Source: a virus. Taken from it: a DNA stretch of 64,000 bases. Below are positions 4,292 to 64,000 of the stretch, piece by piece; position 1 is the first letter of the stretch; the number at the start of each line of letters is the position of its first letter. The DNA lies in IMG/VR virus record IMGVR_UViG_3300045988_138952, positions 4,722 through 68,721 of that record. One strand, 5' to 3'. The notes beneath the pieces were generated by a model. That model did no database searches and was not told the DNA's origin. It worked only from the letters and a program-made list of their open reading frames with translations. Made by a program: the position numbers and the translations under genes.

Positions 4292-5275
4292 TTAACCCCA
4301 GTAGTTGTTACAACCACAACCGCTACGCCCATACATTGCATCACCGGCGTAAGCACCGAAAGCCGCAGCACGAGCTATCTCAGGGTTAAATGCTTGCAAT
4401 TGCGGGTATGGCACTGCTACCGTAGGTGGCATCTTGCATTTTATTCCATCGACATCGGACTGCAATGCCTGCAAGCCTGCTGCCAAAGGAGCAATCTGTT
4501 GTCCTACTGAATTCAGGATAGTAGCATTCTGGTTACGTTGGGAGATTTCAGCGGTCAAAGTGGCTTTTTCTGCTGTAAGAGCCGCAATCTTGTCCTGCAA
4601 TGCTTGGTTCTGCATAGCGTCCAACTTTGCAAGGATAGCATTGGTATTGGCGGTCGCACCGTCACGCAATGAAAGTGCATTCTGATTGGCTGTGTTGACA
4701 AGCGCGTTGGTCTGATTGCACATCGCAAGCTGGTTCTCATAGCCCATTGTGGTAATGGCGTTCTGAGTCTTGCAGCAACAATCTGCAATCTGAGTAAGAA
4801 CAGCCTGATTTCCGGACTGGAATGCGTTGATGATTTGCTGGCTTGACATGCCCACCTGATTTCCTACATTGGCGATAAGTCCCTGGATGTTGCACAGGGC
4901 GCTCTGTAACTGTTGGGTAGAGCAGTTCAAAGAAGAAGCAAGCTGGTTGATGGCATTGCCATTGCCCTGAATGGCTGACATCAGGTATTCACGACCGACA
5001 TCACCGTTAAGCTCGGCAGGCAGACCTCCACCATTGCCAAAGCGGTTGCCGAAGCCGTTACCGCCCCAACAGAACCACAAAAGGATAATCCAGATGAACC
5101 ACCACGAGCCGCCCCATTGGTCTTGGCTGCCACGTCCCTGGTTCAGTAAAGCGAGAAGTCCGGGGTCTACACCCTTGCTTCCCATCAAGTTGGGCAACAT
5201 AGCCATGATGTCAAATTTGCTTCCGCCACCATTTCCGTTGTTCCCGTCTTGGTTGAAGACATACGTTCTTTCCAT
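4292..5275 (-). CDS. Gln/Asn-rich membrane protein with Cys clusters
   Basis: G/N-rich N-terminus, one Trp-rich TM segment (WWFIWIILLWFCWGG), a long Q/N/A-rich coiled-coil-like region, a CCC cluster and a GCGCNNYWG C-terminus. Confidence 0.7.
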   Translation of the reverse strand: MERTYVFNQDGNNGNGGGSKFDIMAMLPNLMGSKGVDPGLLALLNQGRGSQDQWGGSWWFIWIILLWFCWGGNGFGNRFGNGGGLPAELNGDVGREYLMSAIQGNGNAINQLASSLNCSTQQLQSALCNIQGLIANVGNQVGMSSQQIINAFQSGNQAVLTQIADCCCKTQNAITTMGYENQLAMCNQTNALVNTANQNALSLRDGATANTNAILAKLDAMQNQALQDKIAALTAEKATLTAEISQRNQNATILNSVGQQIAPLAAGLQALQSDVDGIKCKMPPTVAVPYPQLQAFNPEIARAAAFGAYAGDAMYGRSGCGCNNYWG

Positions 5276-5348
5276 AGAGATTTATATTTTGTATTACGGT
5301 CAAAATCAACCGCATCACAAAAGTATAAATACGCAATCTGCCATGAAA

Positions 5349-9503: not shown

Positions 9504-9908
9504 TTAGAGTTTCAATACTTGGTTTCTGTTTCCTTCTCTTCGGTGACTGACGTGTACCCATGAGAAGTTTTTCTCATCAATAACCTGGTCAAAGGGAAGT
9601 TTCAATTCTTGTATAAGATTAAACAGTCTTTTGTTCTCTTTCGGGGTATTTGGAGTACCGACAATATCGGCAGCACATCCGTTCATGTGGTCGCTCGTTT
9701 TAGAGCCGCCTACTGCTTTATTAAGAGCAGGGCAACGGTATCCGCTTGTCACTGTGATAGGTTTTCCGTAAGCCTCTCTTAACGGGTCGAGGACATTGTC
9801 AACCAACGCTTGTGCATTGGGAAGCAGTTCTTGCGGCAATCTGTTATCTATAGCTTTCTTATCAGCCGTTTCGCTTTTAACCAGTTCTGCAATTGTAAAG
9901 TATCTCAT
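9504..9908 (-). CDS. endolysin, peptidase M15 family (D-Ala-D-Ala carboxypeptidase / L-Ala-D-Glu peptidase type)
   Basis: Motifs VTSGYRCPALNKAVGGSKTSDHMNGCAADI and SWVHVSHR are Zn-ligand H..D..H type. I chose the start at 9908, 1 nt after the stop of the upstream TM gene. Confidence 0.85.
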   Translation of the reverse strand: MRYFTIAELVKSETADKKAIDNRLPQELLPNAQALVDNVLDPLREAYGKPITVTSGYRCPALNKAVGGSKTSDHMNGCAADIVGTPNTPKENKRLFNLIQELKLPFDQVIDEKNFSWVHVSHRREGNRNQVLKL

Positions 9909-9909
9909 G

Positions 9910-10089
9910 TTATTTCTCTTTTCTAAAATATTTGTCATAAACTAAACGAGCCACCCATCCGGCAACAACACCGACACCGAATGATACAACAGTAGTCAGG
10001 TTCACCCAAAACGGTGTGTAGTGCATGTAAAGCATAACTCCCACGATGATAGCGATAACAATCGCTGCGATAATCAGTTTCTTTTTCAT
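9910..10089 (-). CDS. holin candidate (59 aa, two TM segments, charged C-terminus)
   Basis: My translation: MKKKLIIAAIVIAIIVGVMLYMHYTPFWVNLTTVVSFGVGVVAGWVARLVYDKYFRKEK. It lies immediately upstream of the endolysin and is too short for the ORF track. Confidence 0.6.
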   Translation of the reverse strand: MKKKLIIAAIVIAIIVGVMLYMHYTPFWVNLTTVVSFGVGVVAGWVARLVYDKYFRKEK

Positions 10090-10834: not shown

Positions 10835-11296
10835 TCATATCTTGCCGTAATATCTGAACCATGCGCCCCACTTTCGCTCTTTCAGATAGTTCGGATTATC
10901 CTGGTTGAGTTTGGCTTCCATTTCAAAGGCGCTTGCATAATAGGCATTGGCGTTCACTTTCCCATCACCGATTTGTTTGTCCTTGAACAAATGATATATA
11001 AAACTGATAAACCATTCCACACCGTACATTATATAGTACAAGGTGGGAATAAGAAGCATCCACCACCAGCTCACATACAGAGAAAGGAAAACCGCCGGTA
11101 TCGTAGCAATTTCCATACATTCCTTGAACTGGAGCTGATGAATACGCTCCTCACGTTGTGCCTCAATAGGCAAACTTGCATGTTTGGTAATGATGAAACC
11201 AAAGAACATCATCGTACCGTAGTTCTTGAACAGAATGGCTTTAGCGAGCCAATTCTCATAAAATACTTTTACTCTCATAATCAAAAAAGTAAACAC
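10835..11296 (-). CDS. multi-pass membrane protein (153 aa)
   Basis: Several hydrophobic segments (e.g. IATIPAVFLSLYVSWWWMLLIPTLYYIMYGVEWFISFIY). Confidence 0.6.
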   Translation of the reverse strand: MFTFLIMRVKVFYENWLAKAILFKNYGTMMFFGFIITKHASLPIEAQREERIHQLQFKECMEIATIPAVFLSLYVSWWWMLLIPTLYYIMYGVEWFISFIYHLFKDKQIGDGKVNANAYYASAFEMEAKLNQDNPNYLKERKWGAWFRYYGKI

Positions 11297-11322
11297 TTTG
11301 TTATTTTATTAATATTATTGTT

Positions 11323-11783
11323 TTACGCATTCATTAGAACACAAACCAAACCGAAAATCCCTGTACTATCTGCAATATCAAATACACTATCGCCATTATT
11401 AACGACAGAATCAGTTATTTCTATAACAAAATTATTGGCTACAGACTCCTTTTTTGTAATAGCTCTTATTGGAGTATTATCTTCATTAAAAAGACTAATA
11501 GCAGTAGGTGCTCTAAATGAATACCATTCGATATGTTGTTTTTTTATTTCAGTTCTTACTGAATCTCGATATAAATAAATAGGGATACTACTAAGATTGC
11601 AAATAAGAACAAGTTGTACATTAATTTCTTTATGTACTAAATCATCTGCAAATTTGATATTATCAACAAGTTGTTTAATATCAAATTCTTTGCCAGCAAT
11701 AAGTTGATTTCCAATACGAATACTCGTATTACTTATACCTACTCTTACCCCCCCCCGTTAATATCTTTCGTATCTTTATCCAT
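11323..11783 (-). CDS. poly-G-interrupted gene B: 12-codon leader, G9, then a 141-codon -1 frame
   Basis: ATG at 11783, MDKDTKDINGGG then TAA. The -1 frame opens inside the tract (GGGVRVGISNTSIRIGNQ..) and runs to the stop at 11323 with no early start codon. Confidence 0.6.
11748..11756 (-). repeat. G9 homopolymer tract (C9 on + strand) in gene B
   Basis: Counted directly: ..ctctta CCCCCCCCC gttaatatc.. on the + strand. Confidence 0.95.
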
Positions 11784-11794
11784 ATCAATTGTAT

Positions 11795-12177
11795 TTATTT
11801 CTTTATTACTAAAACTAAATAAGAACCATAACCAGTAAAATTAAATAATACATTATTTGCTTTTGCTGTAATAGTATCATTAGCTTCTCCGTTATCGGCA
11901 TCACCAAAACGAAAATCATATACAATATCTGTATTAGTAGTTATTTTCCAATTGGAATAACTATATAAAAAGGAAATACTATTTGAAGCAACATTAACTG
12001 TATTATTATCTATATTAAAAGATTTAGTTTCTTGCGAATTATTAACTATAATACACGCAGAACCAGGGTCATTAAAGAAACCATCTTCATAATTAACTGT
12101 TACCCCCCCCCTAATATCTCAGTATTACCAATAAACAATCCTGCATTATTAGAACCAACTTTTAAATTACTATCCAT
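11795..12177 (-). CDS. poly-G-interrupted gene A: 25-codon leader, G9, then a 102-codon -1 frame
   Basis: ATG at 12177, MDSNLKVGSNNAGLFIGNTEILGGG then TAA. The -1 frame (GGGVTVNYEDGFFNDPGS..) runs to the stop at 11795 with no internal start codon. Confidence 0.6.
12103..12111 (-). repeat. G9 homopolymer tract (C9 on + strand) in gene A
   Basis: Counted directly: ..ctgtta CCCCCCCCC taatatctc.. on the + strand. Confidence 0.95.
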
Positions 12178-12189
12178 ATCTTTAAGTTT

Positions 12190-13935
12190 TTATTCAATTA
12201 CAGCATACATTGTAGAATTATCTTTAGTACCGATACTATCATATTCAGTTTTAGTACGTTTAACAACTCTTTGTAGATTATCGGAAGTGAGTATATCTTC
12301 TATAGAGGCAGCGCAGTCTTCATCATTGGGCATTAGTTTAAATCCCATACGCTTGGAAACAGGACCGTTATTAATATAATAACTGATATTGCATTGCAAG
12401 TTATATTCTTCAGTTTCAGGGTCGTGAAAAGAGTAAATGCTACTAAGTTCAATACAATTATCTTTGCTATTATAACTGTGAAAATAATACTTGGTGTGGT
12501 TCGCTATAATATCCTGGATTATTTCTTTCAGATTATCAACCGAACCAAAGATGGTGTTTATAAGGTCTATTGCTTCCCTGTCTCTTTCGTTTTTATTGGT
12601 AACAAGATAAGTGCCCACAGAAACGTTAATAACCTTACCATAACCGATATTATTCGCATACTCCTTCGTCGCTATATTCGCCACTATTCCCGCAGGGGTT
12701 TCAGTAGTTGGACTAACACTTTGGTCGCCTGGTGCATATGTATCAGTATGAAGAATAACTTTTGCTTCATGAGAAGCATAAAAGTGGTATTTGCCACCAC
12801 CTCGTACAAAAACATAGCATGTATCAAAGTGGCTCAAATTACCTAAACCCCTCACAGGGTCTATATCTGCATGAACGAAATCTGATAAGTATATAGTAAT
12901 ATTGCTATCACGATTAACGCCCCAAGCATTCGGAGCAAATTCCCAAATTTTACGAGTAGAAAAACCTCTCTCATGTTGAGACCATGACGGTTTTGTACCG
13001 CTATCTAATGATACCAGCACTTCTACTCGTATGTTCATTCTTTCTCCAGCAGCAATCGTAACCGGATACCATGTATTTTCATCCAACCCCGAAGTGTCAA
13101 TCTCTGTAAGCTGCATCATGTAGCCAACACTACGAGCGCTTGAAATACTGTCATCGACATATTTCTTATCAGGAACTTCCGCCCAATCCCCATTCTTACG
13201 ACCGTATGCCTTTCCATCAGTTGGCGCTTCGTCTATGCCGCCAATCTTCCCCTGGCTTACCCATTCACCGTTCACCCATGCGTAGTAATCATAAGGAGCT
13301 TCCGTACCTACAGCCATGAACCCGTCAACTGCCGAACCATCAGGAACAGCGGATTTCAAGGCTTCAAGGGTGGCGTATTCGCCGGCTACACGGAAAGAGC
13401 TTCCCGGCTCGCCCTTGCAATAAATATCCGTCTTGTCGAAACTTTCCGTATTCTTGTTGTACACATAGACATAGTGGTCTTTGCCGATGTATGTCGGATT
13501 GTTGGCAATCTTTTCGGCTTCCTGGGCGGCTACATTAGCGGCTGTGGCTTTTTCTTCGGCATTGGATGCAGCGTTGTTTGCGGATTGGGTAGCCGCTTCT
13601 GCTCCTTCTTTAGCTGCGTTGACATCGGATGCAGCTTGTGCCGCCAGTCCTGCTTTCTCATTGGCGGAATTTGCGGCTGTCTGTGCTGCTGTGGCGTTGC
13701 TTTCTGCTTTAGTAGCGGCTGCATTTGCTTTATCGGCAGCTTCCAAAGCGGGAGCGGCTAACAATTCAAGTGGGGCACGTACAATCTTCGGCATGTCCTT
13801 CCCCTCTACTTCTTGATATGCGGGCAGAGATGTGATACCGTCCAAACTTTCCGCTTCCGGCACATCGCCAACACCTTGTGAACCTTTTTTTAGCTCATCT
13901 TCTATTTCTCGTAAATCCTGTTCTGTCCAAGCCAT
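12190..13935 (-). CDS. tail fibre protein (581 aa)
   Basis: Ala/Asn/Glu-rich coiled-coil stalk (AAATKAESNATAAQTAANSANEKAGLAAQAASDVNAAKEGAEAATQSANN..) followed by a globular C-terminal domain. It lies downstream of the tail-tip gene. Confidence 0.65.
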   Translation of the reverse strand: MAWTEQDLREIEDELKKGSQGVGDVPEAESLDGITSLPAYQEVEGKDMPKIVRAPLELLAAPALEAADKANAAATKAESNATAAQTAANSANEKAGLAAQAASDVNAAKEGAEAATQSANNAASNAEEKATAANVAAQEAEKIANNPTYIGKDHYVYVYNKNTESFDKTDIYCKGEPGSSFRVAGEYATLEALKSAVPDGSAVDGFMAVGTEAPYDYYAWVNGEWVSQGKIGGIDEAPTDGKAYGRKNGDWAEVPDKKYVDDSISSARSVGYMMQLTEIDTSGLDENTWYPVTIAAGERMNIRVEVLVSLDSGTKPSWSQHERGFSTRKIWEFAPNAWGVNRDSNITIYLSDFVHADIDPVRGLGNLSHFDTCYVFVRGGGKYHFYASHEAKVILHTDTYAPGDQSVSPTTETPAGIVANIATKEYANNIGYGKVINVSVGTYLVTNKNERDREAIDLINTIFGSVDNLKEIIQDIIANHTKYYFHSYNSKDNCIELSSIYSFHDPETEEYNLQCNISYYINNGPVSKRMGFKLMPNDEDCAASIEDILTSDNLQRVVKRTKTEYDSIGTKDNSTMYAVIE

Positions 13936-43562: not shown

Positions 43563-44061
43563 TGTATTTAAAGTGTTTATTATGTTTGTTGTGGTATTAT
43601 ATATTTACATATTCTTATGGCTGTGTTTTATGTTGTAAGTGTTTTATATATAGTGTATTATGTTGTATCTGTTGTATGTTTTATAATATGATTATTTTAT
43701 GAAAATATTTTGCAATATTCTTTGCTGTTTACAAAATAATTCGTACATTTGTAATGTAAGAAAGAGATAGATATAAGGTCCTGGTTCTTACAGGCGTGTT
43801 ATTAAGTGTTGGAATAAAAAAGAGAGCCTTAACACTGCAATGTTAAGACCCTCGTAGGTTGGGAATACTTAAAGAAGTACCCCCCCAAGCGGAGGCAAAA
43901 GTACTTCTTTAATTTCTCACCTGCAAATATTCTTCCATTTATTTACATACTTGATACAAATACGTTTTAGTCTTATTGTGTTAGGCTTCTGGTATCGTGT
44001 TGTATTGGTTTACGTGTACGCGCTATAATGTTGAATCATTAACAATTTAAACTATAGCATT

Positions 44062-63166: not shown

Positions 63167-64000
63167 ATGGCACGAAACAGAATGATTAAGCCAAAGTTCT
63201 GGGATGATACCAAAATAGGACGTCTTACAAGGGATGCAAGGCTTCTCTATATAGGTCTTTGGAATTTCTCTGATGATTCAGGGACTGTAATAGGTGATTC
63301 TATCTGGTTAAAGTCTAAAATATTTCCGTATGACCAAATCCAAATACAACAGTTTGAAAAATGGATGAACGAGCTTGTGATAAACGGATTTATATGTCTG
63401 CTTTCCTATAAAGGGGAAAGATTCATATATCTGCCAAATTTCACTCGGCATCAAGTAATCAACAAACCTAATTACGAGGATTTGAATATACCTAAATACT
63501 TGATAGACAAAATAAAAGATAATATTCACTTATTAATCACGGAACAATCACGTAATACTACCGTATCATTCACTGAACAATACGTGACTAAAATAGAAGT
63601 AGAAAGAGAAGAAGAATATCCCCCCTATAATTCCCCCCAAGGGGAAGTCTCGCCATCAGGGAACAATGAGAGTGATAAGATAAATTACAATGGTCTTATG
63701 GATACGTTCAACAAGATGTTTGAAGGACGGTTACCCAAAGTTACGGCAATGACAGAAAAACGTAAGAAAGCCGTAAAAGTAAGAGCCGCAGAATATGGAA
63801 AAGAGGCTATTATGGCTGTTTTCAACAACGTTTCTCAATCAGCATTTCTTTTGGGGCATAATAACCAAAACTGGCATTGTGATTTCGACTGGATATTCAG
63901 ACCGACAAATTTCATTAAGATTTTAGAAGGCAATTACAATGGAGAAAGACTTAGTAAAAATCAACAGGATAGCGAGCAGCGAAAACGTGATTCAGTTCTT
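63167..64000 (+). CDS. putative replication initiation / replisome-organiser protein, 3' end outside window
   Basis: ATG at 63167 with an open frame to the window end. N-terminus MARNRMIKPKFWDDTKIGRLTRDARLLYIGLWNFSDDSG is typical of phage replication proteins (from memory). Confidence 0.55.
   Translation, partial: MARNRMIKPKFWDDTKIGRLTRDARLLYIGLWNFSDDSGTVIGDSIWLKSKIFPYDQIQIQQFEKWMNELVINGFICLLSYKGERFIYLPNFTRHQVINKPNYEDLNIPKYLIDKIKDNIHLLITEQSRNTTVSFTEQYVTKIEVEREEEYPPYNSPQGEVSPSGNNESDKINYNGLMDTFNKMFEGRLPKVTAMTEKRKKAVKVRAAEYGKEAIMAVFNNVSQSAFLLGHNNQNWHCDFDWIFRPTNFIKILEGNYNGERLSKNQQDSEQRKRDSVL

Follow-up and report, generated by a model that had tools for sequence, protein, structure and literature searches.

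How could two genes lying directly behind a tail-fibre gene yield a product when each of them is closed by a stop codon shortly after its start? The question is raised by a 64,000-nt stretch of viral DNA (IMG/VR virus record IMGVR_UViG_3300045988_138952, positions 4,722 to 68,721; hereafter the window), in which a tail-fibre gene of 581 aa (12190..13935, minus strand) lies directly upstream, on the same strand, of two small genes that each consist of an ATG leader, a run of nine Gs (G9), a TAA and a long open frame lacking a start of its own. Our results suggest that the two G-runs are hypermutable contingency tracts gating both fibre-adjacent genes, and we put the probability of this reading at about three in four. 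The poly-G contingency switch envisaged in a preliminary description of the locus is supported by relatives that carry, on the same flanks, runs from G5 to G11, together with abundant alleles in which leader and body are fused (ON) and intact bodies where they are not (OFF). The length of the runs probably changes by slippage at a high and reversible rate within phage populations.

Layout of the two interrupted genes

Gene 1 starts with an ATG at 12177-12175 and encodes a leader (MDSNLKVGSNNAGLFIGNTEIL; 12112..12177) of 22 codons including the ATG, i.e., 21 further codons rather than the 22 counted originally. The leader is followed by tract 1 (G9, 12111-12103) and by a TAA (12102-12100) that closes a leader open reading frame (ORF) of 25 codons in the G9 state. 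Its body lies in the −1 frame, the one that a run of ten Gs would bring in, which opens at the last G (GTA ACA GTT) and continues for 102 codons to a stop at 11797-11795 (body with stop, 11795..12103). Gene 2 has its ATG at 11783-11781, the leader MDKDTKDIN (ATG plus 8 codons, 11757..11783), tract 2 (G9, 11756-11748) and a TAA (11747-11745), and its −1 frame is open for 141 codons from the last G (GTA) to a stop at 11325-11323 (11323..11748). The fibre gene ends 12 nt before the gene-1 ATG, and the gene-1 stop is separated by 11 nt from the gene-2 ATG. The tandem arrangement behind the fibre gene, the leader–G9–TAA order and the open lengths of the two −1 frames were all recovered on the minus strand as first described, and no own-start ORF of at least 30 aa is present in either body frame in the ORF list of the window. 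Both genes thus contain a homopolymer of about 7 nt or more in their 5′ coding region, placed 22 codons (gene 1) and 9 codons (gene 2) after the ATG. A context of the form GATATTA[AC]-G9, which had been given for both tracts, is slightly inexact: gene 1 reads GATATTA-G9-TAACAG and gene 2 reads GATATTAAC-G9-TAAGAG.

A run of G7 or G10 fuses the leader to the body (ON), and G9 leaves the gene OFF. Gene 2 has a further start codon in a different frame, 5 nt ahead of its ATG (TTG in the window, 11786..11788; ATG in some relatives, P0009, P0012 and P0014); at G8 or G11 it would be in frame with the body, and the product would begin LIWIKIRKILTGGV.... At tract 2, G7 and G10 would be ON from the ATG and G8 and G11 from the −5 start, and G9 is the sole length class without any in-frame start codon.

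The two tracts are the only G/C homopolymers of 8 nt or longer in the 64 kb; dinucleotide shuffles predict 0.09 occurrences of G9 per window, and two matches were reached in 2 of 100 shuffles. The GC content of the region, noted before only as visibly low, is 25–29% across 11300-12200 (27% in the body DNA) versus 39.8% for the whole window. At the local composition the probability of a stop is 0.092 per codon, or about one stop per 11 codons in a random frame, and the chance of an open frame would be 5e-5 for 102 codons and 1e-6 for 141 codons. The G-runs are not explained by codon usage, because GGG is the rarest glycine codon in the neighbouring genes (13.6%). A scan of promoters and terminators yielded nothing informative. 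On the plus strand, shorter C runs occur at 43880-43886 (C7, without obvious gating of an ORF) and at 63620-63625 and 63633-63638 (C6, eight bases apart).

Run length and reading frame among relatives

About 50 poly-G loci were assembled from the isolate phage BS162P1 and from IMG/VR, ENA and Logan assemblies. The leaders served as DNA patterns in IMG/VR and metagenome contigs, exact look-ups of ON and neighbour proteins were made in ENA and Logan, and the conserved membrane-protein gene downstream of the two genes (146/153 aa; 10835..11296, minus strand) was the anchor for gathering relatives. Run lengths are consensus calls of the assemblies, including independent Illumina assemblies made with SPAdes or MEGAHIT.

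Across all relatives the runs range from G5 to G11 on shared flanks (identical over 12 nt), and some are interrupted (GGGGGAGGGG; protein variants RGG, GGEG and GERG). Tract 1 with the identical flanks attaG(n)taacag has n = 7, 9 or 10. At tract 2 the identical flanks taacG(n)taagag enclose G7 six times, G8 14 times, G9 11 times, G10 three times and G11 twice, the sister context taatG(n)taagag encloses G7 and G9 twice each, G8 once and G10 six times, and other body types carry G6–G11. The comparison of tract length in relatives, proposed at the outset, therefore did not return a uniformly in-frame run but consensus sequences in all three frames. The same was seen in an unbiased sample of 20 loci picked only by the identity of gene 1 to the alleles P0125 or P0155, in which tract 2 is G7 (three loci), G8 (nine), G9 (five) or G10 (three), and all three frames are populated. 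All four ON/OFF combinations of genes 1 and 2 were seen.

Length differences are also found between very close relatives. Among pairs of loci with 1–3 substitutions per ~1.2 kb (runs removed), the length of tract 2 differs in 45 of 86, so that the nine bases of the run undergo changes about as frequently as the remaining 1,200 bases combined; two loci of identical background, L117 and L141, carry gene-1 runs of G10 and G7, respectively. Tract polymorphism among otherwise near-identical genomes, a mark of contingency loci, is thus present, and so is a second one, the toggling between full-length product and early termination, with both states occurring in nature and the OFF alleles intact.

Since homopolymers are error-prone and the two runs share an offset of one base, one might suppose that the true sequence is in frame and that the G9 calls are artefacts of sequencing or assembly. 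Nevertheless, G9/G9 was called in five assemblies from different assemblers and at least two runs, the ~50 loci differ in length by up to 4–6 nt, fall in all three frames and include 3-nt differences (7 vs 10), the isolate BS162P1 has an out-of-frame G9 in its gene-2 homologue, and A7/T7 runs in the same loci are invariant (a small control). Because calls from the same clone agree across assemblers and differences between clones are wide, an artefact is very unlikely.

The distribution over frames also bears on programmed recoding, which the preliminary description offered as an alternative. Under such a mechanism G9 would itself be the functional state, the bodies would be made by −1 ribosomal frameshifting on G GGG GGG or by RNA-polymerase slippage, and the DNA length would be largely irrelevant. 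The run indeed fits the X XXY YYZ slippery pattern, with a 0-frame stop immediately after it in both genes of the window; the same G9/G9 recurs in five contigs from several assemblies; and the lengths are spread over the frames approximately as neutrality predicts, which could be tolerated if every frame were rescued by RNA-level slippage. However, relatives do not keep the out-of-frame relation: the most abundant forms of gene 1 are G7 and G10, which are in frame, and G8 and G11 alleles would need another shift than G9. The immediate TAA is not conserved either, as gene 2 of BS162P1 reads G9-TTAAGGTAG, and no stimulatory RNA structure lies 5–9 nt downstream, nor is any structure common to both genes: gene 1 has z = −0.08, and gene 2 (z = −1.36) has a modest hairpin from ~17 nt past the run. 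The best-documented cases of efficient transcriptional slippage, moreover, concern A/T runs. A fixed programmed −1 frameshift as the designed mechanism is not supported, because neither the frame relation nor the immediate stop is conserved and a common downstream structure is lacking; we regard recoding as quite improbable, whereas leaky expression by slippage of RNA polymerase or ribosome on the run is possible.

The contingency reading further requires bodies that are genuine genes, and the relatives provide ON proteins for both. Gene-1 ON homologues are 126, 127 and 128 aa long (87–97% identity) and have junctions such as ...EILGGV.., ...EILGGGV.. and ...EILRGGV..; the alleles P0125 (G10, 127 aa) and P0155 (G7, 126 aa) were found in 156 and 101 contigs, respectively. 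Gene-2 ON homologues of 152 aa (MDKDTKDINGGV...) are 88–92% identical, a second body type has 160-aa ON forms (...INGGGV...), and 154-aa forms use the start 5 nt upstream in the other frame (M/LIWIKIRKILTGGV...). Many 142-aa forms begin with MLKIGELTSGLFAGDKLIAGKEFD (MLKIGEL...) at an ordinary ATG and have no poly-G, so that the downstream frame, whose lack of conservation would have spoken against a gated gene, is conserved at the protein level in many relatives independently of a tract. Every OFF allele not cut by the end of its locus has a full-length open body, with a second lesion in none, which argues for recent or reversible OFF states.

The ratio of nonsynonymous to synonymous polymorphism (pN/pS) differs between the genes. 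It is 0.28 in gene 1 and 0.16 and 0.13 in two flanking genes, and in gene 2 it reaches 1.82 for the IKQL-type body (25 distinct sequences pooled, including always-ON ones) and 1.27 for the WSKLY-type. The high values of gene 2 are as expected for a surface that would interact with the host.

Architecture of the products and exchange of bodies

The 22-aa leader of gene 1 is a near-invariant N-terminal segment, and after the Gly run at least seven dissimilar bodies follow it in relatives. Homologues of its motif (LKVGSNNAGLFIGNTEILGG) open the gene-2 body (VRVGISNTSIRIGNQLIAGK) and a third paralogue that relatives carry (MVKIGNLSISNLAVGNK); elsewhere in the window, among ORFs of at least 40 aa (a cut-off below which the gene-1 leader ORF falls), the motif was found only in gene 2. 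The gene-2 body accordingly consists of this N-terminal segment (VRVGISNTSIRIGNQLIAGKEFD) and a variable beta-sandwich. Relative to the common segment, the tract is downstream in gene 1 and upstream in gene 2, which suggests that tracts were gained or retained independently.

AlphaFold models both fused proteins as beta-sandwiches whose N-terminal segment is of low confidence (pLDDT 73.5 for gene 1 and 74.8 for gene 2, mean ~74), in keeping with the beta-rich products that were anticipated from the translations. Profile searches of the PDB with the gene products gave chance-level matches only. The best Foldseek matches in the PDB (E 3e-3 to 2e-2, TM <0.45; pilins, actinoporins and VHL) share a generic beta-sandwich, and naming a function from them was rejected. 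No similarity to Tfa, gp38 or chaperone families was detected by Pfam, PHROGs, NCBIfam, PDB profile search or Foldseek, and neither product has a homology or fold match to a known receptor-binding protein, adhesin or chaperone.

The neighbouring gene is identified as a fibre by PHROG tail-fibre families (E 1e-6 to 1e-11) and by weak Pfam matches to Phage_tail_C and Fibritin_C. Its product has an Ala-rich coiled-coil N-terminal part and a mid-protein foldon-like motif, and the gene has an AT-rich 3′ end. The foldon-like motif, at aa ~232–255 (GGIDEAPTDGKAYGRKNGDWAEV, the weak Fibritin_C match), follows the Ala-rich coiled-coil region, and the two together suggest a putative trimerisation module within the fibre. 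The AT-rich block (25–33% GC, window 11300-12650) reaches into the 3′ end of the fibre gene.

Among phage records, similarity was found only to BS162P1, a Bacteroides phage isolated from sewage and grown on B. salyersiae, of which no mention was found in the literature. At the nucleotide level the similarity is confined to the cassette borders and forms three short blocks. The first covers the 3′ end of the fibre gene and leader 1 and stops precisely at tract 1; the second comprises the intergenic region, leader 2 and tract 2 and takes in the first ~22 codons of body 2; the third is the downstream membrane-protein gene, which bounds the cassette region on the right and opens the lysis module. 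Homology is limited to these blocks (L001 6001-7944), the first of which stops at tract 1, and the fibre tip and both bodies thus behave like interchangeable cassettes flanked by conserved junctions. The gene-1 homologue of BS162P1 has its G9 in frame, owing to an extra A before the run, and in the gene-2 homologue the G9 shows the −1 offset seen in the window, here with no TAA directly behind it. Its annotated 104-aa hypothetical protein BS162P1_00128 (WAX08907.1, L001 6976-7290) is a truncated call of this frameshifted homologue, for which the full ORF would need G10 or G7. From the position behind the fibre, the modular architecture and the pN/pS values, we infer that the products are virion-associated host-recognition accessories.

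Several observations weigh against the contingency reading. Backgrounds of 1.2 kb that are exactly identical mostly share their run lengths, and only one non-duplicate group (L117/L141) differs. Five contigs, from at least two sequencing runs, match the window at 100% identity over 3–5 kb, and G9/G9 is present in all of them, including two with a different endolysin, so that this state is stable enough to persist across samples; runs that carry the clone of the window include ERR589440 and ERR589732. The A/T homopolymer control, two A7/T7 tracts that are shared by at least eight loci and both invariant, is tiny. Neither fused protein matched Pfam, PHROG or NCBIfam, and Foldseek searches of the AlphaFold models found nothing below E 1e-3 in the PDB, the best BFVD matches being uncharacterised viral proteins. 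Lastly, the ON fraction in unbiased samples is ~1/3 for both genes, near the expectation for neutral drift of run length.

This last value is what would be seen at a non-adaptive hot spot, where dispensable accessory genes drift in and out of frame toward loss and no bet-hedging is involved. The pN/pS above 1 in gene 2 could be taken in the same sense, as could a decayed run (G5A) that leaves gene 1 off in L082, L093, L095 and L106, and the lack of any poly-G in most relatives (73% anchor identity). Decay should, however, leave further lesions in bodies of 102–153 codons when 9% of random codons are stops, and no secondary stop or frameshift was seen in any of ~30 OFF alleles. A pN/pS of 1.8 is found also among the always-ON versions without poly-G, lies above the pseudogene expectation of 1 and goes with ORFs that are open in 47 loci. 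Long runs of the rarest glycine codon are, in addition, kept at 2–4 genes per locus and at varied positions relative to the N-terminal motif. A neutral hot spot stays a rival because of the ON fraction near 1/3, although we consider it unlikely. The intact OFF bodies, the retained runs of the rarest Gly codon and the 2–4 paralogues argue for a mutability that may be maintained, in preference to pure drift.

A proposed switch and its relation to known systems

Given the contingency reading, the switch could work as follows. The polymerase would slip on the homopolymer during phage DNA replication, so that Gs are gained or lost, and the resulting length would determine whether the ATG leader is fused to the 102- or 141-codon body (G7, G10 and G13, ON) or whether translation ends at the TAA just past the run (other lengths, OFF). 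In gene 2 the second start, 5 nt upstream in the other frame, would give a product for G8 and G11 and leave G9 as the only fully closed state. With the two genes switching independently, four or more expression classes might be possible per phage population, and the genome in the window, with G9/G9, would represent an OFF/OFF variant. The products may dock via the conserved N-terminal segment ([LV][KR][VI]G..N.G.F.GN..I.G) and display the variable beta-sandwich, and switching could hedge host range or adsorption.

A wider and more tentative picture, which we hold to be possible rather than probable, is that a prevalent lineage of human-gut Bacteroides phages carries behind its fibre 2–4 independently switching accessory genes gated by poly-G, each with a docking segment and an exchangeable, rapidly diversifying body (gene 2 is the one for which diversification was shown). 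The G-run would double as switch and as the junction at which bodies recombine, the outcome would be combinatorial bet-hedging of host range, and the locus would be the first contingency locus to be described in a Bacteroidota phage, mirroring the phase-variable capsules of the hosts.

Contingency loci are familiar from bacteria, including Haemophilus influenzae lic, Neisseria opa and pilC and the polyG genes of C. jejuni, in which repeats are 5′-proximal and alternative starts occur. Bacterial loci of this kind are reviewed in PMC11868660. The phage genes resemble them in having the tract just past the start codon, in the natural occurrence of ON and OFF alleles with intact ORFs, in independent loci that would give combinatorial phenotypes and in two starts in different frames that would allow more than two states. 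They differ in that the carrier is viral, so that the phenotype would appear in the next infection cycle and virions may package a genome of another state.

Among phages, the receptor-binding-protein genes of Fletchervirus reportedly contain hypermutable polyG tracts (Sorensen et al. 2021, Cell Rep 35:109214). Both systems share phage-encoded G homopolymers, several per genome, that lie in genes of the structural or host-recognition module and shift the frame by their length, as well as virion phenotypic diversity as the proposed role. For Campylobacter jejuni Fletchervirus, papers that cite this work link polyG tracts to phase-variable expression of receptor-binding proteins (PMC10877375, PMC10579305). 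The present phage differs in being a gut phage of Bacteroidota with unrelated proteins, in tracts no more than 9–22 codons from the start of small (~125–160 aa) tandem genes downstream of the fibre, in a tract 1 that forms the junction of a conserved N-terminal segment with interchangeable bodies and in a gene 2 with a second start in another frame.

Reversible frameshifts at short homopolymers, with bet-hedging as the proposed role, have also been described as contingency loci of T2 and T4 (Gomez, Barrick and Waters 2025, bioRxiv 10.1101/2025.10.21.683753). The T-even loci share with the present genes the reversible homopolymer frameshift in phage genes and the proposal of bet-hedging; they are, however, many short repeats distributed over all gene classes and detected as minority variants at the read level, whereas the 64 kb of the window contain just two long G9 runs, both at a fibre-adjacent cassette, and the consensus differs between samples. 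The invertible G/C segment of Mu and P1 and the diversity-generating retroelement (DGR) of Bordetella phage BPP-1 likewise diversify distal fibre or accessory proteins stochastically, with a conserved N-terminal and a variable C-terminal part. Unlike in those systems, no invertase, inverted repeats or reverse transcriptase is involved here, and the change is ON/OFF by frame and not a change of sequence.

A long-read study of gut phages from 2025 mentions polyG tracts as no more than a possibility, with reference to the Campylobacter work, and our literature searches found no report of a poly-G switch in phages of Bacteroides or other Bacteroidota, in agreement with the initial impression that none had been described for Bacteroidales phages. 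The principle is already known from Campylobacter phages and, more loosely, from T2 and T4, and the features particular to this locus are the tandem array, the tract at the junction of segment and body, and the second start in another frame.

Bacteroides evade phages by phase-varying their capsules and surface structures. If true, a stochastic switch on the phage side would help to explain the long-term coexistence of phage and host in the gut. Gene callers and GenBank annotations miss or truncate such genes, as with BS162P1_00128, and both host-range prediction and phage-therapy cocktails with Bacteroides phages would need to take the state of the run into account. The lineage is common: 2,327 indexed blocks of the assembly collection contain the 98-aa gene that neighbours the locus in the window. 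In searches for a host or prophage, this gene was found only in one Bacteroides metagenome-assembled genome, and the gene-2 leader did not occur in any of 185,579 reference genomes. The 98-aa gene, which lies upstream of the fibre gene, is also present on contigs of 200–300 kb (L123-L132), and most long contigs of the phage group end near 88 kb; the 200–300 kb contigs could reflect integration, concatemers or misassembly.

Further poly-G runs were seen at other places of the related loci. A third run (G7–G10) lies 13–18 nt 5′ of the ATG of the third paralogue (MVKIGNLSIS...) in ten loci, including BS162P1, where it is a G8 just upstream of that ATG (L001 6932-6939; the others at L082 5629, L085 2314, L087 12903, L093 1045, L095 619, L106 2578, L100 2278, L107 4468 and L098 9327). 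An in-frame TAA between run and ATG makes it non-coding in most of these genomes, and in L098 alone (G7 then CAA) is an ATG-G7 start in frame. The third run could be a leftover, part of an upstream ORF with re-initiation, or a matter of spacing. Further poly-G-gated paralogues lie in L105 at 5059, with G8 between the leader MDSNNMNNIDTYNN and the body GQVKVGENNSGVYIGDALVAGVKFD..., and in L003 at 629, where an ATG is directly followed by a G9 in frame with a 90-aa ORF (MGGGNYADNVDG...).

Variation is also found in the genes beyond the cassettes. L109 and L110 match the window at 100% identity in the fibre gene, in the two G9 genes and in the genes that follow, but their endolysin (4389-4976) is an Amidase_3, in place of the Peptidase_M15_3 endolysin of the window (9504-9938); the lysis module has been exchanged while the tail-fibre region is identical. 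In some relatives (L113, L115, L120-L122, L137 and L139; ~4570-5280), a gene for an HNH endonuclease (NUMOD4 / HNH_3) is inserted a few genes downstream of the cassettes.

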